Positions 47,857 to 64,000 of a DNA stretch of 64,000 nucleotides are shown here, piece by piece. The notes beneath the pieces were generated by a model. That model ran no database searches, was not told the DNA's origin, and saw only the letters and a list, made by a program, of their open reading frames with translations. The position numbers and the translations under genes were made by a program. Location of the stretch: NCBI GenBank assembly GCA_944386385.1, contig CALXAV010000009.1:3615-67614 (forward strand). Direction: 5' to 3'. Origin of the DNA: an uncultured Clostridia bacterium (lineage in GTDB: Bacteria > Bacillota > Clostridia > TANB77 > CAG-508). Position 1 is the stretch's first letter. Every line of letters begins with the position of its first letter.

Positions 47857-48306
47857 TTATTTAAATTTAAAGATATTCTTTATCTTATTAATAATTCTTC
47901 TAAAAACATTTTCTTTATATTCTACAATTGCTGTATTATTTACTGCATCTACATTTATATAATTATTATTCTTATTTTTAAATAAATCTTCAGGATTATA
48001 TTTTATTCTTAAGCCTTCTTCATGTATTTCCTCATTATTTTTTAATATATTTTGTATCTCCATTTTTTCATTTTCATCATTACACCAATAGTTATAATGT
48101 ATTAATGCTAAAATATTTAAACTTTCTTTATTAATATCTTGCTTATTCAAAGTTGTTTCCATGTTATATTGAGGATTATAAGTAATATCTCTTTTTTCTT
48201 CTAACATATTATACAAACTTTTTGGTAATCTATTAATATACTCGCTTCCCAAAACCTTTAACACTTGATATACTTCCGAATATATTCTCTTAGTATTTTC
48301 ATTCAT
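47857..48306 (-). CDS. Hypothetical protein (149 aa)
   Basis: ORF overlapping the upstream gene by 4 nt (ATGA). Confidence 0.5.
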   Translation of the reverse strand: MNENTKRIYSEVYQVLKVLGSEYINRLPKSLYNMLEEKRDITYNPQYNMETTLNKQDINKESLNILALIHYNYWCNDENEKMEIQNILKNNEEIHEEGLRIKYNPEDLFKNKNNNYINVDAVNNTAIVEYKENVFRRIINKIKNIFKFK

Positions 48307-49358
48307 TTTTCTTCTCCTTCGTGACTTTTTTGTTTCTCATTCTCAAGGCCTTCTCCTAATCTTTCTTTTGCCTTCCTTACTCCTGATAAATTAACCTCTT
48401 CACTTGCTCTATAAGAATCTAATAAAATTTTAAGTACATGCCCTCTTCTATCTGTTGATTTATCACTCTCTCTTTCAGTTTCTTTTTGTCTTTCCATTTC
48501 TAAATAATCTAAGGCTTGTGTTGCCGAATCATCTTGACTTAAATGTACTGATGTTTTTGCCAAATTTTGAGCTAATTGTTTATTTCCAATTCCTCTTTCT
48601 AGAATATTTTTTCTTTCTAACTCTCCCTGTTTCGTTTCTATTGTTTCTTGCTCTTCTTGACTCATTTGTTTTAATAATCTAACGTTTCCAGATAAGACTG
48701 CATCGCTTATTGCTCTAGCTTTTCCTGTTACTTTACTATCCATCTCTGAAAAGAAACTATCTTTTTCTTCTTCAGGTAAAAATTCATAATAATCTGGATT
48801 CCTAACAAAATTTATTTCTCCATCACTTTGTGTATAATGACCTAAAATGAATTCTTTTGGAACCCTTCCTTTTCCATTTTCCTCTTTACATACTGTATCT
48901 AATACACAAGTTGTTCTATGGTTATTTCCAGCACATTCTACATCCATTGATGGAAATCCTAAATAGAGTTCTTTTCCTTCACTGTTTGAAATAATATATG
49001 GTGCTAGGACTATAACATTTAATTTCTGTTCATCATCTCCCCAAGAATAATCAACTATATTTTGCCTAGTACCTTTACCTTCTACGCTTGTTCCAAAAGA
49101 ACTTACAGTTGATAATATTCCTTCATTTTCCTTTAGTTCTATACCATTTTCGAGAATACTATTTAATTTTCCTTCTCTATCACCTTTAGTAATTGAATGG
49201 ACACCAATTCCGTAAGTTCCACCATTCATAATCTTTTCTATATAATCGAACATTTTATCTGAATTACTTTTTTGATGATTTTCAGTTTTTATCTCACTAT
49301 CAACATCTATTCCTTTAATTGCTTTTCTTTCGTTTTCGTCCAAAATTATTTTTCTCAT
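48303..49358 (-). CDS. Hypothetical protein (351 aa): globular N-terminal domain plus a charged coiled-coil tail
   Basis: ORF. No recognisable family. Confidence 0.5.
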   Translation of the reverse strand: MRKIILDENERKAIKGIDVDSEIKTENHQKSNSDKMFDYIEKIMNGGTYGIGVHSITKGDREGKLNSILENGIELKENEGILSTVSSFGTSVEGKGTRQNIVDYSWGDDEQKLNVIVLAPYIISNSEGKELYLGFPSMDVECAGNNHRTTCVLDTVCKEENGKGRVPKEFILGHYTQSDGEINFVRNPDYYEFLPEEEKDSFFSEMDSKVTGKARAISDAVLSGNVRLLKQMSQEEQETIETKQGELERKNILERGIGNKQLAQNLAKTSVHLSQDDSATQALDYLEMERQKETERESDKSTDRRGHVLKILLDSYRASEEVNLSGVRKAKERLGEGLENEKQKSHEGEEK

Positions 49359-49494
49359 GTATTTTTATATCCTTTCTTTATATCATATACAAATCTATTA
49401 TAGCATATAATTTAATTTTTTATATAAAAATTTAAATATTTTTATAAATAAAAAAAGACATGGAATCTAATTTCCAGCCTTTTTATTATAAATA

Positions 49495-50031
49495 TTATAT
49501 TAATTGTAATATTGCAACTTCTGCTCCGTCTCCTCTTCTTGGACCAGCTTTAACGATACGTGTATATCCACCTACGTTTTTACCAGCATATTTTGGAGCT
49601 ATTTCGTTGAATAATTTTGATGGTAAATCTATATTATTACCTTTTTCATCTTTAACTTTGTTTAAAGTTTTCATCATTTTTCTTCTAGCATTTAATCTAG
49701 ATGGCATATCTTTTTGTCTCTTTTCAGTTGTTGTTTCTTTTACAACTTTAAGATATTCTTTACCATTTTTGCTTTTTACTAGTTCTGTTTCTTTATTTCC
49801 TTTAGAATCTAGTTTAGCTTTTACAACTTTAACATCTACCATTTCGAAATTATCTTTTTCTTTTATTGCTAAAGATATAATACTATCAGCCATTGCTTTA
49901 ACTTCTTTAGCTCTAGGTAATGTTGTTTCAACTTTACCATGTAAAATAAGGTCAGTTGTTAATGTTCTAAGCATTGCCATTCTTATGTCTGTTGTTCTTC
50001 CTAACTTTCTATTAGTTGCCAATTTTTTCAC
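49495..50031 (-). CDS. rplQ: 50S ribosomal protein L17, extended form (178 aa)
   Basis: KLGRTTDIRMAMLRTLTTDLI N-terminus and GGYTRIVKAGPRRGDGAEVAILQLI C-terminus, with about 55 extra residues between them. Confidence 0.9.
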   Translation of the reverse strand: MKKLATNRKLGRTTDIRMAMLRTLTTDLILHGKVETTLPRAKEVKAMADSIISLAIKEKDNFEMVDVKVVKAKLDSKGNKETELVKSKNGKEYLKVVKETTTEKRQKDMPSRLNARRKMMKTLNKVKDEKGNNIDLPSKLFNEIAPKYAGKNVGGYTRIVKAGPRRGDGAEVAILQLI

Positions 50032-50046
50032 CTTCCTTTATTCCTA

Positions 50047-50994
50047 TTATTCGTCTTCTTTAGCAAAATCTAGTCCCAATGAATGTAATTTTGCTGTTAC
50101 TTCTTCTAATGATTTCTTTCCAAGGTTTCTTACCTTCATCATTTCATTTTCAGTTTTATTTGTTAAATCTTCAACTGTTCCAATTCCTGCTCTCTTCAAA
50201 CAGTTAAATGATCTTACAGATAATTCTAGTTCTTCTATTGTCATTTCTAGAACTTTTTCTTTCTTAGATTCTTCTTTTTCTATCATAACTTGTGTATTCT
50301 TTGTAGCTTCTGATAGATCTATAAATAATTCTAAGTGTCCTGTCATAACTTTAGCTGCTAAACTTAAAGCTTCATGAGCTTTTAAGCTTCCGTCTGTCCA
50401 AACTTCAATTACTAATTTATCATAATCTACCATTTGTCCAACTCTAGTATTTTCTACTTGATAATTTACCTTTTTAACAGGTGTATAAATTGAATCAATT
50501 GGAAGTACAGATATATCTTGATTTGGTTTTTTATTCTTTTCTGAAGAATTATAACCTCTTCCTCTATCAGCTGTCATTTCCATTTTTAAACTTCCACCTT
50601 CAGAAACTGTTGCTATATGTAATTCTGGATTTAATATTTCAACAGTACCATCAGTAATGATATCTGCTGCTAATACTTCTCCTTCACCTTTCTTATCTAT
50701 TCTTAATATTTTTTCTTCATTATCATCAAATTTTAATCTTACATTCTTTAAATTAAGAATAATATCTGGTACATCTTCTACTACATTATCAATGTCTGAA
50801 AATTCATGTAAAACTCCATCAATTTTCACACTTGTTATAGCACATCCTGGAAGAGATGAAAGTAAAATTCTTCTTAGTGAATTTCCTATTGTTACTCCAT
50901 AACCTCTTTCTAATGGTTCGCATACAAATTTTGCATAATTATTTGTATCATCTACCTCTAGACATTCAATATTTGGCTTTTCAAATTCTATCAT
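50047..50994 (-). CDS. rpoA: DNA-directed RNA polymerase subunit alpha
   Basis: [14 protein letters not shown] and [16 protein letters not shown]. Confidence 0.95.
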
Positions 50995-51104
50995 TTTTAC
51001 CTCCTAATATTCGAGAATATATCTCAAACTTTTTAAAACTAAATAGTTTCTTCTCAAGTAAAATTTAAAAGTTCTTATTAAATCTTTTTTATTACTTCTA
51101 ACTA

Positions 51105-51731
51105 TTATTTTGAGTAAAGCTCTACTATTAAATGTTCTTCTATTGGAATATCAATATCTTCTCTAGACGCTAATCTGATTACTTTACCACTTAAGTTTTC
51201 AGTATCTTTTTCAAGCCATGCTGGAACTGGTCTTTTTGCTGATTCTTGGGCATTTACTTTTATTGTTCCGTTATCTTTTTTATTTTCTCTTACTGTAATT
51301 ACGTCACCTGCTTTTACTAAGTATGATGGAATATTAACTTTCTTTCCATTTACTTCAAATTGTGCATGTGTTACAAGTTGTCTTGCTTGAGCTCTTGATG
51401 CTCCAAATCCTAATCTATAAACAACATTATCTAATCTACTTTCTAATATTTGTAATAGTTCTTCACCTGTTACACCTTTTTTATTAGAAGCCATTTCAAA
51501 ATATTTTCTAAATTGTTTTTCTCCAACTCCGTAATATGCTTTTGTTTTTTGTTTTTCTCTTAACTGTGTTCCGTATTCAGAAAGTTTTGCTCTTTTTTGT
51601 CCATGTTCTCCTGGTGCATAATTTCTTCTTGAAATACTACATTTGTCAGAATAACATCTATCACCTTTTAAGAACAATTTTTGTCCTTCTCTACGGCATA
51701 TACGACATTGTTCATCTTTATATCTTGCCAT
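51105..51731 (-). CDS. rpsD: 30S ribosomal protein S4
   Basis: [16 protein letters not shown].., [14 protein letters not shown]. Confidence 0.95.
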
Positions 51732-51814
51732 TTTTATACTCCTTTCTTTTTTATGACAAGGGATTTCTTCTCTTCTATTCCCTTTATATATTTTTCTCTA
51801 ATTTTTATTCTTCT

Positions 51815-51906
51815 AAGGTATACAAAAATCACTTGTGATTTTTGTATTAATCATCTGTAGCACTCAAAAATTTGCAATACAAATTTTTTCATTAACATCT
51901 GATTAA
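51815..51906 (-). repeat. Two-hairpin spacer module, copy A (between rpsK and rpsD)
   Basis: mRNA sense: TTAATCA...TGATTAA outer stem beginning at the rpsK stop, then ATACAAAAATCAC/GTGATTTTTGTAT hairpin followed by ACCTTAG. Confidence 0.6.
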
Positions 51907-52298
51907 ACTCTTCTTCTTTTTGGTGGTCTACAACCATTATGTGGTATTGGTGTTACATCTTTGATTGCACTTATCTCTAAACCAGCTGTTTGAAGTGAAC
52001 GAATTGCTGCTTCTCTTCCTGAACCTGGTCCTTTAACAAATACTTCAACAGATTTCAAACCATGTTCCATTGCAATTTTAGCTGCTGTTTCAGCAACTTG
52101 ACCTGCTGCAAATGGTGTGCTTTTTCTAGAACCTTTATATCCTAATTCTCCAGCACTTCCCCATGAGATAGTATTTCCTTGAGTATCTGTTATTGTAACT
52201 ATTGTATTGTTAAAACTAGAATGAATGTGAGCTGCACCTTTTTCGATGTTTTTTCTATTTCTTCTAGCTACTTTTTTTGTTGTTACATTTTTAGCCAT
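51903..52298 (-). CDS. rpsK: 30S ribosomal protein S11
   Basis: [26 protein letters not shown]. Confidence 0.95.
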
Positions 52299-52359
52299 TT
52301 CGCTTTTTCCTCCTTGTTCAAAATTATTTTATATTTTGAAATTCTATTTTTATTGTTAA

Positions 52360-52728
52360 TTATTTTTTACTTTTGCTTACTAGTTTTCTAGGACCTTTTC
52401 TTGTTCTAGCATTTGTTTTAGTTCTTTGTCCTCTAACTGGTAAACCTCTTCTGTGTCTTAATCCTCTATAGCAACCAATTTCTGTTAATCTCTTGATGTT
52501 TAATGCTACTTCTCTTCTTAAGTCACCTTCAACAACATAAGATTCGTCAATTACTTTTCTTATATCATTTACTTGGTCATCAGTTAAATCTTTAACTCTA
52601 ATGTCTGGATTTACCCCAGCTTTTTCAAGAATTTTTCTAGAACTTGATACTCCTATACCATAAATATATGTAAGTCCTATTTCTACTCTTTTTTCCTTAG
52701 GTAAGTCTATTCCTGCTATACGAGCCAT
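52360..52728 (-). CDS. rpsM: 30S ribosomal protein S13
   Basis: [15 protein letters not shown] start (RBS GGAGGTG). The track ORF is over-extended upstream. Confidence 0.95.
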
Positions 52729-52930
52729 ATTTTTTTGCACCTCCAAAAATTTTTTGTTTTGTTTGTCCAAAATCAACTTAAAAAGTGAAATGATACCGGT
52801 GTTTACCCCAGTCAGTTTAAGTTCTTTTAGACATATATATAAACACAAATTAGATAATGTAATCTAAAGAATTTTAATTTTCTTTAAATCCACAGCCGCT
52901 ACCTCATTTGTGTTATTAACTATTTAGGAA

Positions 52931-53044
52931 TTAACCTTGTCTTTGTTTGTGTTTAGGGTTTTCACAAATTACTCTAATAACCCCTTTTCTTTTTATAACT
53001 TTGCATTTATCGCAAATTGGTTTTACTGATGGTCTTACTTTCAT
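52931..53044 (-). CDS. rpmJ: 50S ribosomal protein L36 (Zn-binding form)
   Basis: Own translation [37 protein letters not shown]. Below the ORF-track cutoff. Confidence 0.95.
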
Positions 53045-53104
53045 TACTATAGCACCTCCTTGGCTTTGCTTTATATATATCTTCTTTTGGGTTAATCTAA
53101 TTTA

Positions 53105-53323
53105 TTATTTTGCTCTCCAAGTAATTCTTCCCCTTGTTAAATCATAAGGTGAAAGCTCTACTTTTACTTTATCACCTGGTAATATTTTTATATAATTCAT
53201 TCTTAACTTACCAGATATATGAGCAAGTATTTGATGTCCATTTTGTAGTTCTACTTTAAATACAGTATTTGGTAGTGCTTCTACTACCTTTCCTTCTACT
53301 TCAATTACATCTTCTTTTGCCAA
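53105..53323 (-). CDS. infA: Translation initiation factor IF-1
   Basis: [30 protein letters not shown]. Confidence 0.95.
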
Positions 53324-53411
53324 TTTCTTTCCCTCCTATTTTTAAGAGTTTTCATATTTTTATGCAAAATTTGGCTATTGTGCATAATAACTACTATATT
53401 ATACATCATGA

Positions 53412-54182
53412 TTATAGAATTGTCAAGATTTCTGGCTCTTTTTCTGTAATTAAAATTGTATTTTCATAATGTGCTGCCAAACTTCCATCTTCTGTTATAA
53501 TTGTCCAACCATCATCAAGCTCTAAAATGTTTGGTTTTCCTTGAATTACCATAGGTTCTATGGCTAAAGTCATTCCTGGTTCTAGTCTTATTCCTCTTCC
53601 TGCTTTTCCGTAGTTTGGTATTCCTGGATCTTCATGCATTTCTCTTCCTATTCCATGACCTTGGAATTCTCTTACAACAGAATATCCTTGAGAACGTACA
53701 TATTCTCCTATCGCATGACATACATCACCTATTCTATATCCTGGTTTTGCATATTTAATACCTTCAAAAAATGCTTGTTTTGTAACTTCTACTAATCTTT
53801 TTGCATCTTTAGACACATTTCCTATCATAAATGTTCTTGCAGCATCTCCATTAAAACCATTTTTAAGTGCTACTGTATCTACACTTACAATATCTCCTTC
53901 TCTTATAACTCTATGTTTTGAAGGAATACCATGAATAACTTCATCATTAACAGATATGCAAATAGATGCTGGAAATGGTGGTACACCCCTTATTCCTGAA
54001 GGATATCCCTTTTCTGCTGGAAGTGCACCTTCTCTTCTTATTATTTTTTCTGCTAGAACATCTACATCATAAGTTGTCATGCCTGGCTTTATTTTCTTTT
54101 CTAACTCTTCATACATAACAGCAACAACTCTGCATGCTTCTCTCATGTATTCTATTTCTTTTTTTGATTTAATTGTTACCAA
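53412..54182 (-). CDS. map: Type I methionine aminopeptidase
   Basis: VHGIP, DIVSVD, GHGIGREMHE, EPM, EN metal ligand pattern. Confidence 0.95.
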   Translation of the reverse strand: MVTIKSKKEIEYMREACRVVAVMYEELEKKIKPGMTTYDVDVLAEKIIRREGALPAEKGYPSGIRGVPPFPASICISVNDEVIHGIPSKHRVIREGDIVSVDTVALKNGFNGDAARTFMIGNVSKDAKRLVEVTKQAFFEGIKYAKPGYRIGDVCHAIGEYVRSQGYSVVREFQGHGIGREMHEDPGIPNYGKAGRGIRLEPGMTLAIEPMVIQGKPNILELDDGWTIITEDGSLAAHYENTILITEKEPEILTIL

Positions 54183-54194
54183 TTTTATCGTCTC

Positions 54195-54863
54195 CTATTT
54201 TTCTTCTTTAATAAATTTTAAAACATCTTCAGCAACATCTTTTCCAAGTTTATTTATTGATTTGCTTACTACTGCTGAATATAAATTACCTTTTTTCTCA
54301 TAATATTCAACTAATGGACTTGTTTGTTCAATATAACTATTAAATCTTGCTTTTACAGTTTCTTCATTGTCATCTTTTCTTTGAATTAATTCAGCTCCAC
54401 ATTTATCACAAATTCCTTCTTGTTTTGGTGGATTTAACACTAAATTATATACTGTCTTACAATCTGGATTTGAACAGATTCTTCTGTTTACTATTCTTTC
54501 TATTATTTCTTCTTCTGGTGTTGTCAAATTTATTACTAAATCAACTTTTTCACCTTTTTTCTCTAATAACTTATCTAATTCTTCTGCTTGTTTTACTGTT
54601 CTTGGGAATCCATCTAGTATAATTCCAGCTTGAACATCGTCATCTTCTAATCTATTTTCTACTAATCCTATTGTAACGTTATCTGGTACTAATTCTCCTT
54701 TTGATATATAACTTTCAGCTAACTTTCCTAATTCTGTCTTTTCTTGTATATGTTTTCTAAAAATATCTCCTGTTGATACTTGTGGTATACCTAAACTTTC
54801 TTTCAATATACCTGCTATAGTTCCTTTTCCTGTACCAGGTGCTCCTAACATAATAATTACCAT
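54195..54863 (-). CDS. adk: Adenylate kinase (Zn-lid form)
   Basis: GAPGTGKGT, LDGFPRT, lid CSNPDC..CDKCG. Confidence 0.95.
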   Translation of the reverse strand: MVIIMLGAPGTGKGTIAGILKESLGIPQVSTGDIFRKHIQEKTELGKLAESYISKGELVPDNVTIGLVENRLEDDDVQAGIILDGFPRTVKQAEELDKLLEKKGEKVDLVINLTTPEEEIIERIVNRRICSNPDCKTVYNLVLNPPKQEGICDKCGAELIQRKDDNEETVKARFNSYIEQTSPLVEYYEKKGNLYSAVVSKSINKLGKDVAEDVLKFIKEEK

Positions 54864-55011
54864 TATTTAAACACTTCCTCTACTTTTGTTTTAAGATTAT
54901 TTCTTAATAATCTTTAGCATATTCATTATTAAATTTTATAACAAACATGATAAAAATTATTAAAACAAGATTTTGGGACGTCTTTTGTCGACAAAATCCG
55001 TCCCATATATT

Positions 55012-56331
55012 TTACTCTAAAAATCCTTTGTAATGTCTCATTGCTAATTGAGATTCTAATTGTTGAACAGTCTCTAATGCAACACCTACAACGATTAATA
55101 TTGATGTACCACCAAATGCGATATTTAAGTTTGTGAATCTTAGAAGCATTGGAATAATTGCTATCAATGCTAAGAAGAATCCTCCAAACCATGTTAATTT
55201 TGATATTATTGATGATAAATAATCTGTTGTTGGTTTTCCTGCTCTTATTCCTGGAATAAATCCACCATTTTTCTTAATATTGTTTGATACTTCTGCTGGA
55301 TTGAATGTAGCATAAGTATAGAAAAATGTAAATCCCAAAATTAGTAATAAATATACAAGTGCATTTGCTATAGAATATCCAATTGGTACATTTGAAGTTG
55401 ATGTGGCAATTGAGAAATTATATAGTCCTGCTAAAAATCCTGTTTGATTTGCTATATCTGGTACAAATATTTGAATTATCATAGCTGGGAATGTCATAAA
55501 GCTACTTGCAAAAATAACTGGCATAACACCCGCCATAGCAAGTTTTAATGGAATATGTGTGCTTTGTGCCCCCATCATTTTTCTTCCAACTACTTTTTTA
55601 GAATATTGTACAGGTACTCTTCTCTCTGCTTGTTGTACAAATACAACACCTGCAACTAAAATAATTGCTCCAATAACAATTCCTATTGCTAATAATAATC
55701 CTGTTGTACTAAATCCTGCATCTGTCATGATTAAATTCCACAATGTTGTTATTCCACTTGGTAATCCTGAAATGATACCTATGAAAATTAATAATGAAAT
55801 TCCGTTTCCGATTCCTTTAGCTGTAATTTGTTCTCCAAGCCACATAAGTATTGATGTACCAGCAACTAATCCAGTTACTACCAACACTCCTGTTAAGAAA
55901 CTATTATCTACGAATATTCCAGATGATTGGTAAGATAAATAAATACCAATTCCTTCAACTAAAGCAAGTATTATTGTTAAAATTTTAGTATATCTATTTA
56001 TCTTTCTTCTTCCTTCTTCTCCACCTTCTTTAGTCAATTTCTCCAATGATGGAATAATCATTGCAAGTAATTGAATTACGATAGAAGCTGTGATGTATGG
56101 ACTAATTGACATTGCAAAAACAGAAAATCTTGAGAAAGCACCTCCTGAAATCATATCAATTAATCCAGCTATTCCATTAGTATTACTCATTGCATCATTT
56201 AGAGCTATACTGTCAACTCCTGGTACTGTTATATAACATCCAAATCTAAATACAACGACTAATAATAATGTATATAATAATCTTTTTCTAACATCAGGTG
56301 TTTTTAATGCATTTTTTATTGTTTTAAACAA
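55012..56331 (-). CDS. secY: Preprotein translocase subunit SecY
   Basis: 10-TM ORF in the canonical position; GISPYITASI-like MSISPYITASIVIQLL. Confidence 0.95.
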   Translation of the reverse strand: MFKTIKNALKTPDVRKRLLYTLLLVVVFRFGCYITVPGVDSIALNDAMSNTNGIAGLIDMISGGAFSRFSVFAMSISPYITASIVIQLLAMIIPSLEKLTKEGGEEGRRKINRYTKILTIILALVEGIGIYLSYQSSGIFVDNSFLTGVLVVTGLVAGTSILMWLGEQITAKGIGNGISLLIFIGIISGLPSGITTLWNLIMTDAGFSTTGLLLAIGIVIGAIILVAGVVFVQQAERRVPVQYSKKVVGRKMMGAQSTHIPLKLAMAGVMPVIFASSFMTFPAMIIQIFVPDIANQTGFLAGLYNFSIATSTSNVPIGYSIANALVYLLLILGFTFFYTYATFNPAEVSNNIKKNGGFIPGIRAGKPTTDYLSSIISKLTWFGGFFLALIAIIPMLLRFTNLNIAFGGTSILIVVGVALETVQQLESQLAMRHYKGFLE

Positions 56332-56766
56332 CTAAATCACCTCAGCCTTTCCGCCTAAAGCTTCGATTTCTTCTTTTGCTTTTGCTGTAAATCTTTTGGC
56401 TTTAACATTTACTTTTTTATCTAATTTTCCTGTTGCTAAAATAACAATACCATCATTGATTTTTCCAATAATTCCTTCTTCTAATAAACTTTCAGCAGTA
56501 ACATCTGTATTTTTTGCTTTGCTAAGCATTTTTAATGTTACTTCTGTATAAGTTTTAGCATGGATATTATTAAATCCTCTTTTTGGTAATCTTCTAAATA
56601 ATGGAGTTTGACCACCTTCGAAACCACGTCTTACTCCTCCGCCGCTTCTAGATTTTTGTCCTTTTTGTCCTCTTGCTGATGTTTTTCCATTTCCTGAACC
56701 TATACCACGACCTACTCTATTTCTTTTTACTTTCTTTACAGCTGGTTTTAATTCGTCTATTTTCAT
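56332..56766 (-). CDS. rplO: 50S ribosomal protein L15
   Basis: [26 protein letters not shown]. Confidence 0.95.
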
Positions 56767-56819
56767 TTTAAGCCTTGCACCTCCTTCTTTAAATTAGCAA
56801 GGAATTACCATTCCTTAAA

Positions 56820-57305
56820 TTACAAAATTTCTTCTACTTTTTTACCTCTTTTTTTAGCCACTTGTTCAACTGTCATCATTGATTTTAATCCTTCTAGTGT
56901 AGCATAAACAACGTTTCTTGGATTATTTGTTCCAATAACTTTTGTTCTTATATTTCTATATCCTGCTAATTCTAGAACTGGTCTTACACTTCCTCCAGCT
57001 ATAAGTCCAGTACCTAATTCAGCTGGTTTTAATAAAACTTTTGCACTTCCAAAAGTTCCTATATATTCATGTGGTACTGTTGTTTCAACAATAGGTACTT
57101 CAACTAAGTTCTTTTTAGCTTCTTGAATAGCCTTTCTAATAGCATCTGGAACTTCTGCTGCTTTACCGTTACCCACACCTACATGACCGTTTTCGTCGCC
57201 AACAACTACAACAGCACTAAATCTAAAAGTTCTACCACCTTTTACAACTTTAGCAACTCTGTTTATTGCAACAACTTTTTCTTTTAATTCATTTTTTTCT
57301 TCCAT
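56820..57305 (-). CDS. rpsE: 30S ribosomal protein S5
   Basis: [24 protein letters not shown]. Confidence 0.95.
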
Positions 57306-57443
57306 AGGTTTTAGTTTACCCTCCTTTTTGATAATCTCATTATATCTTTTTATCTAAATAATTACAATCCTTTTTTATTAATTATTTTTAATTTAAGAAT
57401 TAAAGCTTCTTTATTATTAATTATATAATTCATAAACAAGTTC

Positions 57444-57510
57444 AAGGTATACAAATGCATAAACATTTGTATCTAGTGTTTGTAATTCGCTTTGCTCATA
57501 ACAAAACACT
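57444..57510 (-). repeat. Two-hairpin spacer module, copy C (between rplR and rpsE)
   Basis: mRNA sense: AGTGTTTTGT..ACAAACACT stem, then ATACAAATG/CATTTGTAT hairpin followed by ACCTTGA. Confidence 0.55.
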
Positions 57511-57516
57511 TAGAAC

Positions 57517-57876
57517 TTAGAATTTTAATCCACCTTCTCTTGCAGCTTCAGCTAATTCTTTTACTACTCCATGATAGATGTATCCACCACGATCAAAAAC
57601 AACTGTTTCGATTTTTTTATCAGCTGCTTTTTTAGCAATTAATGCTCCTAATTCTTTAGCTGCTTCTTTGTTTGCATGTTTATTTTTTACATTTTTATCT
57701 AATGTAGAAGCAGATACTAAAGTATTTCCAGCAACATCATCAATTATTTGTACATATAAATTCGTATTACTTCTATATACACATAATCTTGGTCTTTCAG
57801 CTGTTCCAGATATTTTTCTTCTTACTCTTAAATGTCTTCTTGCTCTTTCCATTTTTCTATCTGTCTTTTTAACCAT
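57517..57876 (-). CDS. rplR: 50S ribosomal protein L18
   Basis: [29 protein letters not shown]. Confidence 0.95.
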
Positions 57877-57925
57877 CTCTATTACTCCTTTCTTCTCGTA
57901 ATATTTATTTAGAATCTATTAAATT

Positions 57926-58462
57926 CTATTTACCTGTCTTTCCTTCTTTACGTCTAATAACTTCATCAGCATATTTGATACCTTTTCCTCTATATACTTC
58001 TGGTGGTCTCTTAGTTCTGATTTCAGCAGCTGTTTGACCAACTAATTCTTTATCAATTCCTTTTACTATTATTGTATTAGGATTTGGAACATCAAAAGTA
58101 ATTCCTGCAGGTGCTTCAAATATTACTGGATGTGAATATCCTAGAGACATATTTAAGTTATTTCCTTGTTTTTGAACTCTATATCCAACTCCATTTATTT
58201 GTAGTTCTTTACTATATTCATTAACTACACCTGTTATCATGTTACTAATTAAAGTTCTTGTTAAACCATGTAAACCTCTGTTAAATGGTTCGTCATTTAC
58301 TCTTGTAACTTTAATTGTATTTCCTTCCATTTCTAAAGAAATATTGTTATGTATTTCTCTTTCTAATGTACCTTTTGGTCCTTTTACAGTAATGTGTTTT
58401 CCATCTATTTTAACTTCAACACCATCTGGTACTGTAATAGGTTTATTTCCTATTCTTGACAT
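57926..58462 (-). CDS. rplF: 50S ribosomal protein L6
   Basis: MSRIGNKPITVPDGVEV. Confidence 0.95.
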   Translation of the reverse strand: MSRIGNKPITVPDGVEVKIDGKHITVKGPKGTLEREIHNNISLEMEGNTIKVTRVNDEPFNRGLHGLTRTLISNMITGVVNEYSKELQINGVGYRVQKQGNNLNMSLGYSHPVIFEAPAGITFDVPNPNTIIVKGIDKELVGQTAAEIRTKRPPEVYRGKGIKYADEVIRRKEGKTGK

Positions 58463-58511
58463 GTTAGGTTTTCCCTCCTTTTTCTTTATATATGATTACA
58501 ACACTTTATTT

Positions 58512-58910
58512 CTACCAAACGTAAGCTAATACTTCTCCACCAATTCCTAATTCTCTAGCTTCTTTATCTGTCTTTAATCCTTTTGATGTAGAAATTATAG
58601 CAATTCCTAATCCATTAAGTACTCTTGGTAGTTCGTCTCTTGTTGCATATACTCTTAATCCTGGTTTACTAATTCTTCTTAAACCATCAATTACTCTTCT
58701 TCCTTTTTCGTCATATTTAAGAGTAATTCTTATGATACCTTGTGTATCATCTTTTATTTCTTCATAAGATTTTATATATCCTTCTTTAAACAATATTTCA
58801 GCTATTCCTAATTTCATATTTGAAGCAGGAATATCAACTGTTTTATGTTTTGCACTATTTGCATTTCTTATTCTTGTTAACATATCTGCTATTGGATCTG
58901 TAATGTTCAT
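58512..58910 (-). CDS. rpsH: 30S ribosomal protein S8
   Basis: [13 protein letters not shown]. Confidence 0.95.
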
Positions 58911-58943
58911 TAATTACTTACCTCCTTTTCTTACATTATTTTA

Positions 58944-59129
58944 TTACCAGCTTGATTTCTTAACTCCTGGTATTTCTCCTTTATGAGCTAATTCTCTAAA
59001 ACAAATACGGCATATTCCATATTTTCTAATATATCCATGTGGTCTGCCACATAATTTACATCTATTATATTCTCTAGTTGTATATTTTTGTGGTCTGGCT
59101 TGTTTTATTTTCATTGATTTTTTAGCCAT
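58944..59129 (-). CDS. rpsN: 30S ribosomal protein S14 type Z (Zn-binding, 61 aa)
   Basis: [23 protein letters not shown]. Confidence 0.95.
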
Positions 59130-59176
59130 AGTTTTACTCCTTTCCTTTGACTAATTTTAAATACAATTATGAATTA

Positions 59177-59728
59177 TTATTTTGATTTTTTTGTTTTAAA
59201 AGGCATTCCAAGAAGTGTTAATAATTCTTTTGCTTCTTCGTCTGTCTCAGCTGTTGTTACAAATATAATATCCATACCTCTTATTTTATCAACTTTATCA
59301 TATTCGATTTCTGGGAATATTAATTGTTCTTTAATACCCATTGAGTAATTTCCTCTTCCGTCAAATGAATGTTCTGAAACTCCTCTAAAGTCTCTAACTC
59401 TTGGAAGTGCTACATTGAATAGTTTGTAAGCAAAGTCATACATTTTATCTCTTCTTAATGTTACTTTACATCCAATGTTAACTCCTTCTCTTAATTTGAA
59501 AGCTGCAATTGATTTTTTAGCTTTTGTTATTACTGGTCTTTGACCTGTAATTTGAGTTAAATCTTTCATTGCATTTTCTAAGGCTTTTGGATTTTCTTTT
59601 AAATCTCCTAATCCAATATTGATTACTATTTTATCTAGTTTTGGAACTTGCATAACTGATTTATATTCGAACTTTTTCATTAATGCTGGGATTACTTCTT
59701 TTTCATATTGTTCTCTTAATTTTTCCAT
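59177..59728 (-). CDS. rplE: 50S ribosomal protein L5
   Basis: [30 protein letters not shown]. Confidence 0.95.
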
Positions 59729-59747
59729 TACGCAAAAATCCTCCTTT

Positions 59748-60056
59748 CTATTTTAATTTTGCTCCACATTTCTTACAAACACGAACTTTTTGATCTTTTT
59801 CAACGCTATATCCAACTTTAGTAACTTTTCCACATTTTGGGCATACTACGTTAACTTTTGAACTTGGAATAGCACATTCTATAGCTATTATTCCGCTTTC
59901 GTCTCCTTGACGTCTTGCTTTAACATGTTTCTTTCTTACATTTACGCCTTTAACAACGATTTTATCTTCTTTTGGTAGTACTTCTAGTACTTCTCCTTTT
60001 TTACCTTTATCATTTCCTGATAAAACTTGAACGTTGTCTCCTTTTTTTATTCTCAT
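59748..60056 (-). CDS. rplX: 50S ribosomal protein L24 (variant with CxxC...CxxC)
   Basis: [28 protein letters not shown]-terminus. C-terminal CPKCGK..18 aa..CKKCGA. Confidence 0.9.
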
Positions 60057-60145
60057 TTAGAGTTTGCCTCCTTTTCTTAGAATTTTTCTTTTACCTTTAT
60101 TTTTAATATTATATAAATATCAATATTTGCTTAATTCTTATTATT

Positions 60146-60229
60146 AAGGTATACAAAATTGCTTTGCAATTTTGTATCTTTAATCTGTAACGTTCGAAAT
60201 ATCAAAGATATTTCTCACTAACAGATTAA
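60146..60229 (-). repeat. Two-hairpin spacer module, copy B (between rplN and rplX)
   Basis: mRNA sense: TTAATCTGT...ACAGATTAA outer stem beginning at the rplN stop, then ATACAAAATTGC/GCAATTTTGTAT hairpin followed by ACCTTAA. Confidence 0.6.
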
Positions 60230-60594
60230 AGAACTTCTGGAGCTAATGAAAGAATTTTCATATAGTCCTTTTCTCTTAATTCTCTTGCAACAGGTCCGAA
60301 TATACGTGTTCCTCTTGGTGTTCCGTCTTCTTTGATTATTACTGCTGCATTTTCATCAAATTTTATATATGAACCATCTGCTCTTCTTAAACCGCTTTTA
60401 GATCTTACTATAACAGCTTTTACAACATCACCTTTTTTTACAACTCCACCTGGTGTTGCTGATTTAACAGAAGCAACTATTACATCACCTATGTTAGATG
60501 TTTTTCTGTATGAACCACCTAAACATCTAATACACATGATTTCTTTTGCACCTGTGTTATCTGCTACTTTTAATCTTGTTTGTTGTTGAATCAT
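60226..60594 (-). CDS. rplN: 50S ribosomal protein L14
   Basis: [18 protein letters not shown]. Confidence 0.95.
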
Positions 60595-60611
60595 TTATGG
60601 TTCCTCCTTTC

Positions 60612-60875
60612 TTATTTTACAATTGCTTTTTCTACAACTTCAACTACTCTCCATCTTTTATCTTTAGAAAGTGGTCTTGTTTCCATTACTTTTACTTTAT
60701 CACCTATTTGGCAAGCATTTTCTTCATCATGTGCTTTTAATTTATAAGTTCTTTTAACTGTTTTACCATATTTTTTATGACTTACACTTGTTTCAACAGC
60801 TACTACAACTGTTTTATCCATCTTATTTGATAATACAGTTCCTATCATAACTTTACGAAGATTTCTTTCTTCCAT
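60612..60875 (-). CDS. rpsQ: 30S ribosomal protein S17
   Basis: [24 protein letters not shown]. Confidence 0.95.
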
Positions 60876-60920
60876 TTAGATTTCTCCTTTCATTAATATC
60901 AAGGAATTTTATTTCCTTAC

Positions 60921-61130
60921 TTATGCTTTTTTACTTTCTGCTATTTTTCTTTCTGTTAATACAGTATTTATTTTAGCTATATCTCTTTTAACTTCTTTTA
61001 TTTTCATTGGATTATCTAATCCATTTGTAGCTAAACTAAATTTTAATTTGAATAATTCTGTTTTTAGTTCACCTAATTCTTTTTCTAAATCTGGTGAAGA
61101 CATTTCTCTAATTTTATTTATCTTCATCAT
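60921..61130 (-). CDS. rpmC: 50S ribosomal protein L29
   Basis: [25 protein letters not shown]. The ATG at 61130 is preferred over the track GTG. Confidence 0.9.
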
Positions 61131-61560
61131 TTTCACCTACCTCTTCTACAGTTTCCCTTGTTACAAATTTTGTTCTATTAGGTAGTTTGTTCATTGCTAA
61201 ACGTAAGGCTTCTCTTGCTGTTTCTTCTGGTACTCCAGCAATTTCAAACATTACTCTTCCTGGTTTTACTACAGCTACCCAACGTTCTGGAGCTCCTTTA
61301 CCTTTACCCATACGAGTACCAATAGGTTTTGCTGTTAATGGTTTGTCTGGGAATATTTTAATCCAAACTTTTCCACCTCTTTTTATATAACGAGTCATTG
61401 CAACTCTGGCTGCTTCTATTTGGTTACCTGTAACTAAAGCTCCTGTTACAGCTTGAATTCCATATTCTCCATCTGTAACTCTATTTCCTCTTGTTGCTTT
61501 TCCTCTCATTCTACCTTTTTGCATTTTTCTATGTTTTGTTCTTTTTGGCATTAATGGCAT
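61114..61560 (-). CDS. rplP: 50S ribosomal protein L16
   Basis: MPKRTKHRK.., [18 protein letters not shown]. Confidence 0.95.
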
Positions 61561-62216
61561 TATTTGTCTCCTCCTTCCACTTTCTTCTCTGGAAGAATTT
61601 CTCCTTTATATATCCAAACTTTTACACCGATTTTTCCATAAGTTGTATCAGCTTCTGCAAATCCATAATCTATATCAGCTCTTAAAGTTTGTAGTGGTAT
61701 ATTTCCTTCTTTATAGAATTCTGTTCTAGCCATGTCTGCACCACCTAATCTTCCAGATACTGCAGTTTTAATTCCTAAAGCTCCTGCTTTTACAGACTTT
61801 TGCATACATTGTTTCATGGCACGTCTGAATGAAATTCTTCTTTCTAGTTGACCAGCAATATTTTCTGCAACTAATTGTGCATCTGTATCAACATTTTCTA
61901 CACCTACTATATTTAGATTAACATCTTTTCCTATTAATTTTTTAAGTTCTTCTTTAACGCTTTCTACACCAGCTCCACCTTTTCCTATAACGATACCTGG
62001 TTTTGCAACATGTAGATTTATTTTTATTGCTTTAGCTGTTCTTTCTATTTCAATTTTAGAAATTCCAGCAAGATATAATTTTTTCTTTAAAAATTTACGG
62101 ATTTTTTGATCTTCTACTAAATAATCTGCGAAACTTCTAGAATCTGCATACCATTTAGAACTCCAATCTCTAATAACTCCTATTCTAAATCCTGTTGGAT
62201 CTACTTTTTGTCCCAT
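61560..62216 (-). CDS. rpsC: 30S ribosomal protein S3
   Basis: [23 protein letters not shown] (KH domain). Confidence 0.95.
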
Positions 62217-62223
62217 AGTCCTC

Positions 62224-62589
62224 TTAAGCCTCCTTTTCTTTTAATACTATTGTTATATGACTTGTTCTTTTTCTAATTCTAACTGCTGAACCTTTTGCGG
62301 CTGGTCTTATTCTTTTTAAAGTTGGACCTTGGTTAGCATAAATTTCAGCAACATATAAATTTTCATGTCTCATATCATGATTATTTTCAGCATTTGCTAT
62401 AGCTGATTTTAATAATTTTTCGATGATTTCTGATGATGCTTTTGGTGTAAATTTAACAATTGCTAAAGCTTCATCTACATCTTTACCTCTAATTAAGTCT
62501 GCTACAATTTTAACTTTTCTACTTGAAATTCTAGCATATTTTAGAGTTGCTCTTGCTTCATTTTTTACAACTGTTTCTTGCTCTTGCAC
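62224..62589 (-). CDS. rplV: 50S ribosomal protein L22
   Basis: [18 protein letters not shown]. Confidence 0.95.
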
Positions 62590-62653
62590 TTTTATTTCCC
62601 TCCTTAACTAATAATAAGTGTAAGTAATCTCACTTCGTTCTTACAGCTAACTT

Positions 62654-62935
62654 TTATTTACCTACTTTAGTTGTTTTGTCTCCTGCATGACCTTTGAATG
62701 TTCTTGTAGGAGCAAATTCACCTAATTTATGTCCTATCATTTCTTCAGCTATATATACTGGAACATGTTTTCTTCCATCATGTACAGCTATTGTATGACC
62801 TACCATTTGTGGATAAATTGTTGAAGCTCTTGACCAAGTTTTTAATACTTCTTTTTCACCAGTTTGATTCATAGCTTCTATTTTCTTTAATAATCTTTCT
62901 TCTACAAATGGTTTTTTCTTGCTTGATCTTGACAT
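62654..62935 (-). CDS. rpsS: 30S ribosomal protein S19
   Basis: [11 protein letters not shown].., [22 protein letters not shown]. Confidence 0.95.
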
Positions 62936-63036
62936 CTAAAATGTCCTCCTTTCCAGAGTTTTATTTTCTTCCTTTTTCAAGGAAGTCAAAAAACAATTTT
63001 ATCTTGTTTTTTGACTAAGCTACTTTATGAATAGCT

Positions 63037-63870
63037 TTATTTACCGTTTCTTCTCTTAACAATAAATTTATTTGATAATTTATTTTTATTTCTTGTTCTA
63101 TATCCAAGTGCTGGTTTACTCCATGGAGTAAGTGGTCCAGGATGTCCAACTGGAGCTTTTCCATTTCCACCACCATGTGGGTGGTCTACTGGGTTCATTA
63201 CAGAACCTCTAACTGTTGGTCTGATACCCATATGTCTTTTTCTTCCAGCTTTACCAATTTTAATATTTTCATGTTCGCTATTACCAACTACACCAATAGT
63301 TGCTCTACATCTAGCAAGAATTAATCTCATTTCTCCTGATGGTAATCTAACATGAGCATATTTTCCTTCTTTAGCCATTAATTGAGCACTTTGTCCTGCT
63401 GCTTTAACTAATTTTCCACCTTGTCCTGGATTTAATTCTATATTGTGGATTAATGTACCAACTGGGATACTATTAATTGGCATACAGTTACCTGGTTTAA
63501 TATCAACACTTTCTCCAGATACAACTTTATCTCCATCTGTTAAACCTTGTGGAGCTATTATGTATGCTTTTTCTCCATCTTCATATTGAATTAATGCAAT
63601 GTTAGCACTTCTATTTGGATCATATTCGATACCAATTATAGTTGCTTCCATGTTATCTTTTTGTCTTTTAAAATCTATAATTCTATATTTTTGTCTATTT
63701 CCACCACCATGATGTCTTACTGTAATTTTTCCATATGAATTTCTACCTGCAGTTTTTTTCTTTTTAGCAAGTAATGATTTTTCAGGTGTTTTTTTAGTTA
63801 CTTCTGAAAAATCTGAAGATGTCATGTTTCTTCTTGATGGTGTATATGGTTTATAATGTTTTACTGCCAT
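63037..63870 (-). CDS. rplB: 50S ribosomal protein L2
   Basis: [26 protein letters not shown]. Confidence 0.95.
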
Positions 63871-63930
63871 TTTCTTTTCTCTCCTTTTTATTATTTATTT
63901 TCCTGGTTTTTTCCAGATAATCTTTGAAGC

Positions 63931-64000
63931 CTACGCTCCCATAAATTCATCAATTGAATCTTTATATTTCTTTGTTACTTTAACAGATTTTCCACCTTTT
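63931..64000 (-). CDS. rplW: 50S ribosomal protein L23, C-terminal end only (N-terminus beyond the window)
   Basis: Own translation ..KGGKSVKVTKKYKDSIDEFMGA*, in the position expected upstream of rplB. Weak sequence support on its own. Confidence 0.55.
   Translation of the reverse strand, partial: KGGKSVKVTKKYKDSIDEFMGA

Follow-up and report, generated by a model that had tools for sequence, protein, structure and literature searches.

The window analysed here, a 64,000-nt stretch of contig CALXAV010000009.1 from an uncultured Clostridia bacterium, carries on its minus strand the S10/spc/alpha cluster of ribosomal protein genes. The genome holding the window (designated G000) is 1.98 Mb in size with a G+C content of 27.7%. 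Three gene junctions of this cluster have long spacers, located exactly where an earlier note made from the sequence alone had placed them: rpsK|rpsD (51732-51902, 171 nt), rplR|rpsE (57306-57516, 211 nt) and rplN|rplX (60057-60225, 169 nt). Across 20 relatives, the same junctions, where they carry no insert, range from about -19 nt (gene overlap) to 30 nt. Each of the three spacers holds a copy of a two-hairpin module, referred to below as copy A (rpsK|rpsD), copy B (rplN|rplX) and copy C (rplR|rpsE), all read in the sense of the mRNA. In this sense the module consists of a long interrupted stem, followed by a perfect ATACAAA/TTTGTAT hairpin with a copy-specific apex and then by the tail ACCTT(A/G)A. 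The shared layout reported in the earlier note, with a conserved hairpin base under a differing apex and, in copies A and B, a stem rising from the stop codon, is borne out by the pattern ATACAAA-N(4-24)-TTTGTATACCTT, which has three matches in the window against 0.00 expected from 100 shuffles. The two-hairpin fold is far stabler than its own shuffles, at -26.6 kcal/mol (z -6.1) in copy A, -30.0 kcal/mol (z -8.2) in copy B and -23.1 kcal/mol (z -3.7) in copy C.

Anatomy of the module

Covariance models of the module were constructed in two rounds, R1 from four rplN|rplX copies and R2, rebuilt, from 19 copies, with mostly operon copies in the training set; all scores given here are from R2. 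Copy A (51810-51905, minus strand, 72.4 bits) has its first stem at 51848..51905, beginning with the rpsK stop codon TAA (51903-51905). The outer arms of this stem are TTAATCAGATGT and ACAGATGATTAA, and its interior consists of a UA..GA / GA..GCU motif with an apical helix AAAAATTTG/CAAATTTTT. The second hairpin of copy A lies at 51820..51847 (-) and reads ATACAAAAATCAC-AAGT-GATTTTTGTAT; the tail at 51812..51819 (-), ACCTTAGA, is made up of the element end ACC plus TT(AG). In copy B (92.7 bits), the first stem occupies 60178..60231 (-), and its base pairs the last rplN codon and stop codon (CTTTAA, 60226-60231) with TTAAAG. The core of this stem is CTGT-TA-GT-GA-[GAAATATC..GATATTTC]-GA-AC-GTT-ACAG, and rplN|rplX copies in at least nine relatives exhibit compensatory changes in the first stem. 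The second hairpin of copy B follows at 60151..60177 (-) as ATACAAAATTGC-AAA-GCAATTTTGTAT, with the tail ACCTTAA at 60144..60150 (-). Copy C has a short variant of the first stem (57473..57513, minus strand; CTAAGTGTTTTGT-TA-T-GA-[GC AAA GC]-GA-A-TT-ACAAACACTAG) that begins 6 nt past the rplR stop codon (57517-57519), a second hairpin at 57449..57472 (-), ATACAAATG-TTTATG-CATTTGTAT, and the tail ACCTTGA at 57442..57448 (-). This copy is a weak match to the model (27.7 bits, E 0.1), yet it has the same layout and the exact pattern of the second hairpin.

Alignment of the first stem across many genomes revealed a core that had not been described in the earlier note: outer stem, UA, two covarying pairs, tandem G.A, apical helix, tandem G.A, two pairs, NUU and outer stem. 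The outer arms are 4-11 bp long, the 5' UA faces the 3' NUU, and the two covarying pairs occur as GC/GC, GU/AC, AU/AU and AC/GU. An A opposite G or U beside the ACAG is also conserved, and in its commonest variant the apical helix is shrunk to GCGAAGC, known as a hyperstable mini-hairpin of DNA. The second hairpin follows directly on the first stem, with a base of (A/T)T(A/G)CAA..TTGT(A/G) and an apex that is free to vary, giving a unit of about 75-95 nt. In 19 aligned copies, 86% of the cells are paired, against 64% when shuffled and 31-46% when the partners are slid, and both sides have changed in 28 of 35 pairs, figures that lean towards structure as this alignment was fitted to the model. 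Across the copies, G.U pairs number 19 and A.C pairs 2, an excess that assigns the fold to a single strand. As a structure, the module is real, non-random, conserved and strand-specific.

A search of Rfam 15 (E<=1) with positions 48000-64000 of the window found no match in the modules, its sole match being a weak Alpha_RBS hit outside them, and the same database yielded nothing relevant on the ribosomal operons of three relatives. No Rfam 15 family corresponds to the module.

Copies in the genome and in its relatives

A search of the whole genome for the exact pattern, as the earlier note had suggested, uncovered one further match, in the rpoB|rpoC spacer, where the entire module lies on the strand opposite the genes. 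With R2 at E<=5, the genome contains exactly six matches and none elsewhere; the three copies first noticed are therefore those of the ribosomal protein spacers in a set of six. In addition to copies A, B and C, all in sense, there is an internal transcribed spacer (ITS) copy in the rRNA operon (G000:C20:245-319, minus strand; locus L138), located ~55 nt past the 3' end of the 16S gene and upstream of tRNA-Ile(GAU), which is in sense and scores 61.7 bits. Copy D, in rpoB|rpoC (G000:C12:22883-22960, plus strand; positions 1464-1541 of locus L004), scores 51.7 bits and is antisense to both genes. The ffh|rpsP copy (G000:C7:20496-20570, minus strand) scores 43.1 bits and is again in sense.

Scanning 151 genomes of the genus with R2 detected the element in 58, with 1 to at least 22 copies each; 28 candidates were scored per genome, which makes these copy numbers lower bounds. 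At the order level, the element was found only in the window's own family (f1), in 4 of 52 genomes that include members of three sister genera, and in 0 of 98 genomes of four other families. An exact 24-nt core has matches in 71 contig stretches of the species collection, each from a metagenome-assembled genome of uncultured Clostridia, and the isolate names of these assemblies point to mouse, rabbit and water-deer gut samples. A blastn search of phage and plasmid collections with the consensus gave no match, and a literature search found no description of the element.

Three genomes, G092, G127 and G149, have high copy numbers, the highest (at least 22) being that of G092. They share a stereotyped unit, TT|AAG(A/T)TAGCTGTT.GAGCGAAGCGA.TTACAGAT..CTTATGCA followed by the second hairpin and ACATTAAAA. 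Its neighbours in these genomes are ordinary genes, in both orientations: ffh, miaA/mutL, pflB/pflA, ispH/ispG, clpC/mcsB, rsmD, murG and alr/femAB. Of 78 cores, 31 run in sense and 5 in antisense relative to the genes on both sides; one-sided cases comprise 26 sense and 7 antisense. Only two of the 78 fall within an open reading frame (ORF) of at least 100 aa. The unit starts exactly at the upstream stop codon in 9 of 49 cases. First-stem units were also found joined to other hairpins, arranged in head-to-tail arrays and nested in a different repeat with a long palindrome. The consensus of 72 copies begins TTAAG(A/T)TAGCTGT; copies invariably open with a TT|AAG-like left edge and close with ..AC(C/A)|TT.. 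on the right, and the TTAAG of the element often lies on a TAA or TAG stop codon.

The earlier note had proposed a conserved functional RNA element and had named as its own alternative a generic dispersed repeat similar to the repetitive extragenic palindromic (REP) sequences. The presence of the element in 58 of 151 genomes, in both orientations and between unrelated genes, bears out the alternative for the genus. The conserved structure behind the original proposal is genuine, but a regulatory RNA specific to ribosomal protein operons is not supported.

Insertion sites, edges and loss

The rpoB|rpoC site is empty in G063 (..GAATAAAATTAA|TTTAATAAATTC..), holds a single inverted copy in G000 and in G156 and contains an inverted array in G092, which places it in inverted orientation relative to the mRNA in three species. 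In G000 the insert extends from GCTGAGG.. to ..GTATACC and has TT on both sides, so part of the "invariant" ACCTTAA probably predates the insertion. TT flanks both sides of the copies inspected, often as TTAA or TTAG, and, judging from the empty site, the TT(AA) or TT(AG) of the tail was probably already present in the target. The comparison of G063 with G000, the one usable empty-site comparison, fits either a TT duplication or none. The ACCTT(A/G)A tail is indeed present in all three spacers of the window, but its invariance holds only as a signature of this lineage, as most family members have ACATT, ACAAT or ATAAT instead. On account of this variation and the likely target origin of the TT(AA), the suggestion that ACCTT pairs with the AAGG of Shine-Dalgarno sequences was rejected.

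Other sites also differ in occupancy between relatives. At junctions occupied by a copy in G092, G127 and G149, the spacers of G000 are short and empty, and the ispG|ispH junction is filled in two species in opposite orientations. The rplN|rplX copy is patchily distributed: in a 21-genome tree built from 22 concatenated proteins it requires at least five gains or losses, by which a monophyletic origin of this copy was rejected. Two relatives retain only deletion remnants at this junction, e.g., CTTTAATTTTAAAGATAC.

Downstream of the insert in the rpoB|rpoC spacer, at about 1325-1460 of locus L004 (minus strand), lies a block of ~135 nt (AATAAATTCTAAAAAGGAAAGAAGCGACATTAGATTTTGCAAGAGCAGAGGATAGTC..TTTTAGAATTACCC) that G000 and G156 share at 95% identity. 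The block can also be made out in G138, G063 and G092 and, from its sequence, is a candidate rpoC leader RNA.

Hairpin divergence between close relatives

G156 is a very close relative of G000, and three sites shared by the two genomes were compared. The coding ends are 100% identical and the spacer adjoining the modules is 95-98% identical, whereas identity falls to 85-87% in the second hairpin and to 68-78% in the first stem. The hairpins have thus diverged 5-15 times as much as the adjacent spacer, with their pairing maintained. At all three sites the tip of the second hairpin is reverse-complemented between the two genomes: AAA/TTT in copy B, CACAAGTG/CACTTGTG in copy A, and GTTTATC/GATAAAA, where one further base differs. 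At rpsK|rpsD, three adjacent bases have changed in both arms of the stem, the stop codon changing from TAA to TAG and its partner from TTA to CTA, and the changed arms match the dispersed consensus. The antisense rpoB|rpoC copy has kept its fold between G000 and G156 by means of two compensatory pairs, with G.T wobbles on the element's strand, so that the constraint follows the element and not the host mRNA.

Hairpins that evolve faster than their flanks and flip their loops point to turnover at the DNA level, the reverse of what is seen in a conserved regulatory RNA, and the covariation is therefore no proof of RNA function. Inverted loops and compensatory changes spanning several bases have been described as products of template-switch mutation in hairpins (PMC8794818), and the same footprints would be left by gene conversion between copies.

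Interpretation and alternatives

Taken together, these observations make it likely that the modules belong to a lineage-specific family of small composite hairpin repeats, non-autonomous mobile or recombining DNA most closely resembling the REP/BIME mosaic elements. The unit combines an irregular stem, ..CTGT-TA-NN-GA-[apical helix or GCGAAGC mini-hairpin]-GA-N'N'-NTT-ACAG-A.., with the variable hairpin on its (A/T)T(A/G)CAA..TTGT(A/G) base. We infer that pairing is kept up largely by processes acting on DNA: template switching within the palindrome would flip the loops and use one arm as template for the other, and copies would convert or replace each other. Selection on the element's own top strand presumably also takes part, because the excess of G.U pairs and the G.A core persist even in copies that are antisense to the mRNA. 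In the sense copies (80-95%), the transcript would carry a stable stem-loop starting at the stop codon. By analogy with REP and ERIC, such a stem-loop could slow decay or termination, which would make it a by-product or secondary use of the repeat rather than a dedicated regulator of ribosomal proteins.

Several points weigh against this reading. No transposase or other partner of the element was found. Y1_Tnp (PF01797) genes, of the RAYT-like or the IS200 type, are present in 125 of the 151 genomes, and at E<=1e-5 none was detected in G092, which has the highest copy number, nor in G100, G051 and G013. None of 12 IS200-like tnpA genes is flanked by a copy, the best R2 match nearby reaching 21.5 bits (E 0.04) with filters off, and a copy lies near only one of eight RAYT-like genes. 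With neither co-occurrence nor flanking copies, RAYT and IS200 were rejected as the mobilising enzyme. The element also has no terminal inverted repeats, its ends AAGTTAGCTGT.. and ..TTGTAAACA not being complementary. Placement raises a further difficulty. All six copies in G000 lie in operons for the translation and transcription machinery (S10/spc/alpha, rpoBC, rrn and ffh-rpsP), which by a rough estimate make up ~2% of the genome. Of 54 listed copies in 18 relatives with a known rplX position, 20 lie in or beside the ribosomal protein cluster, which is ~1% of the genome, a share that is inflated by the operon-trained model. Such a concentration is not predicted for a purely selfish element that inserts at random. 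Copies persist at the same junction across many species and even genera, which could reflect use by the host. Finally, template switching alone would erase the non-Watson-Crick G.A core, so something still selects the fold, perhaps a protein acting on single-stranded DNA or on RNA.

At three loci (L185, L187 and L192), Y1_Tnp-like ORFs of 250-310 aa that resemble RAYT genes have a conserved hairpin beside the gene, AAAGTATAGCACAA-N9-TTGTGCTATACTTT.

The low-copy genomes G074, G048, G137, G021, G249 and G156 (1-3 copies) hold most or all of their copies in the ribosomal protein cluster. The concentration in operons might reflect preferential insertion into heavily transcribed DNA, shielding from deletion within essential operons or, on the precedent of REP and ERIC, host use of the transcribed stem-loops. 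It is conceivable, if on balance doubtful, that the family is not a random parasite at all. It would then either home to the stop codons of the most transcribed operons, by transcription-coupled single-strand insertion with an unrecognised enzyme, or be kept by the cell as RNA punctuation that tunes the output of the ribosomal protein, RNA polymerase and rRNA operons. Either version, if true, would account for the near-restriction of copies to such operons in low-copy genomes.

A related proposal takes the mobile origin as given and holds that the copies in translation and transcription operons have been domesticated as intercistronic RNA. The stem that sequesters the stop codon and the second hairpin would together form a processing or protection site for RNase III, Y or J, or a pause for terminating ribosomes, and would set the stoichiometry of the cistrons. 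We regard this proposal as rather unlikely. The six-of-six placement in G000 speaks for it, as do the sense orientation of 17 of the 18 copies within ribosomal protein operons and the position of the first stem, which at four junctions starts at the stop codon or a few nt from it, with junction-specific arms pairing the last codons and stop of rplN, rplR, rpsK and rpsJ. The rplN|rplX copy has persisted in at least nine species and the rpsK|rpsD copy in several genomes of the genus, and G.U pairs predominate over A.C pairs. Precedents exist in that ERIC elements alter mRNA stability in an orientation-dependent manner, and Liang, Rudd and Deutscher reportedly found in 2015 that an E. coli REP within about 15 nt of a stop codon lowers translation of the upstream gene. 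Domestication is harder to reconcile with the rpoB|rpoC copy, antisense in three species and yet maintained in its fold by compensatory changes, and with hairpins that outpace the neutral flank. The rplN|rplX copy has, moreover, been lost at least several times, and the same unit sits between unrelated genes in relatives.

The remaining explanations are considerably less probable. Tandem G.A motifs of this kind often bind proteins, and an autoregulatory operator, in which a ribosomal protein or an L7Ae-type K-turn binder recognises the G.A core as a mimic of its rRNA site, would account for the conservation across the family of the tandem G.A, the covarying flanking pairs and the small asymmetric loop. 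We consider this very improbable: the unit adjoins dozens of unrelated genes in both orientations, no single ribosomal protein gene is consistently adjacent, no Rfam ribosomal leader family matches, and the core is not a canonical K-turn. The K-turn itself was rejected on its geometry, as the tandem G.A pairs are present but are separated from the UA/NUU loop by two covarying Watson-Crick pairs. To an internal attenuator, terminator or promoter within the operon we give marginally less credence still. The hairpins are stable, but neither is followed by a U-run on the mRNA strand (the tails are ACCUUAGAAG, ACCUUAAUAA and ACCUUGAACU), and a terminator scan found none on that strand at the modules. 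Terminator-like sites number 4 against 3.7 expected and promoter-like sites 55 against 69 expected, and the internal attenuator among the candidates of the earlier note is accordingly not upheld. The one promoter candidate, a 10/12 site at 57339-57367, is not part of the conserved module. In favour of chance resemblance, or of neutral drift in AT-rich spacers, is the fact that short A/T-rich palindromes are common in a genome of 27.7% G+C. This explanation is refuted, to the point of being hardly credible, by the 0.00 matches expected, the z scores of -3.7 to -8.2, model matches of up to 93 bits and the hundreds of related copies in relatives.

The promoter-like site just mentioned (minus strand) reads TTGTAA-17-TATAAT and lies upstream of rpsE, where the rplR|rpsE spacer is rich in A and T.

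Relation to known repeat families

In many respects the family resembles the REP/BIME elements and REPINs of Enterobacteria and Pseudomonas (PMC3116915, PMC3337134, PMC3733652). These too are short imperfect intergenic palindromes, often located in operons just past stop codons and transcribed within mRNAs; they form mosaic arrays of differing hairpin units, are kept at the same sites across species and vary strongly in copy number between relatives. The differences are equally clear. The palindrome of a REP ends on one side in a conserved tetranucleotide, GTAG or CGTC (PMC3733652), which is absent from the 72-copy consensus of this family. A REPIN is an inverted doublet of like REPs, whereas here two unlike hairpins stand in direct order and arrays run head-to-tail. 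In the REPIN-RAYT system a single-copy RAYT is flanked by repeats, an association that is not seen here. The host also differs, being of a Firmicute lineage, as does the concentration in translation operons found in low-copy genomes.

Like the ERIC/IRU, Correia/NEMIS and RUP/BOX/SPRITE-type repeats (PMC2229807), the element is non-coding, folded, non-autonomous, about 100 nt long and co-transcribed with flanking genes, and in those families effects on mRNA processing and stability that depend on orientation are known. Those families have terminal inverted repeats of their own and defined target duplications (TA for Correia), while the present one has no terminal inverted repeats and is flanked by TT/TTAA. 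A miniature inverted-repeat transposable element (MITE) derived from an insertion sequence with a DDE transposase would likewise be expected to have complementary ends, which this family lacks, and a target duplication of fixed length, where the empty rpoB|rpoC site is consistent with a TT duplication or with none. Non-autonomous derivatives of IS200/IS605 (palindrome-associated transposable elements), which Y1 transposases mobilise as single strands, share with this family asymmetric hairpin ends without terminal inverted repeats, a structure particular to one strand and a short left-border sequence that does not vary. They differ in that no tnpA-bearing parent was found here, in the two unlike hairpins, and in that the highest-copy genome has no detectable Y1 transposase. 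Template-switch (quasipalindrome) mutagenesis (PMC8794818; PMC3820800 for highly transcribed DNA) generates similar multi-base compensatory changes and inverted loops between close relatives, but it is a mutation process and not an element family, and leaves the retained G.A core unaccounted for.

The element is thus most suitably classed as a new family of REP/BIME-like mosaic repeats. It is an uncatalogued and structurally distinctive one, with a tandem G.A core and two unlike hairpins, from uncultured gut Clostridia. Its behaviour illustrates that covariation in hairpins is by itself insufficient for calling a regulatory RNA, and model R2 can serve to mask the family in RNA-motif screens and to help gene callers. 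The question is sharpened to why small hairpin repeats accumulate in the ribosomal protein operons of AT-rich gut bacteria. The six-of-six placement together with the conserved antisense copy in rpoB|rpoC provides a compact test set for distinguishing insertion bias from host use.

Other repeats and features of the operon

Across the genus, almost every junction of these operons varies in length, from 0 to about 500 nt, and further repeat families were encountered. Just before the rpsD Shine-Dalgarno sequence, at 51753-51785 of the window (minus strand), lies AAAGGGAATAGAAGAGAAGAAATCCCTTGTCAT, which resembles a shortened member of a second repeat family. In its longer form of about 85 nt (GGGTAATCAC..AAGGGGAGGGGACATTCC..GTGTCCCCTGACATTAG), this family stands directly before the Shine-Dalgarno sequence at many ribosomal operon junctions of relatives, and it has no Rfam match. 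A third family consists of palindromes of about 150 nt (AAATCGATTAAAATCAGCATCTTGCACATTTT...AAAATGCACAATATACTAATTTTGATTT) in relatives' operons, e.g., at loci L121, L123 and L129 (rplF|rplR, rpsM|rpsK and rpsZ|rpsH), and a fourth, GTCATCCGAAATTTT..AAATTTTGGATGACGATGACC, is likewise found in operons of relatives.

Five contigs of G000 (C2, C34, C38, C41 and C57) begin with a common sequence of ~75 nt, within their first ~80 nt: TGCTTCAAACTCAAGGCTTTCATTCCTATGTGTGCCTTTGAGCGAAGCGAGAAAGGAATGAAATTTATTATG. A hairpin, a Shine-Dalgarno-like AAGGAA and an ATG all come from this repeat, which also breaks the assembly. The ATG opens a different reading frame in four of the five contigs, the frame in C2 stopping after nine codons. 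The repeat has the motif GAGCGAAGCGAG in common with the apex of the first stem.

The gap between rpsE and rplO (56767-56819, minus strand, 53 nt) has no rpmD (L30) gene. The 101-nt rplB|rpsS spacer (62936-63036, minus strand) contains three successive small hairpins, AGCTATTCATAAAGTAGCT, GTCAAAAAACAA..TTGTTTTTTGAC and TTCCTTGAAAAAGGAA, which have no relation to the module and may be the decayed remains of another insert. The weak Alpha_RBS match (23.6 bits, E 0.067, below the gathering score) lies at 52696-52780 (minus strand), in the 202-nt rpmJ|rpsM spacer. The length of this spacer is constant across the genus (177-279 nt), which fits a real S4-type leader.

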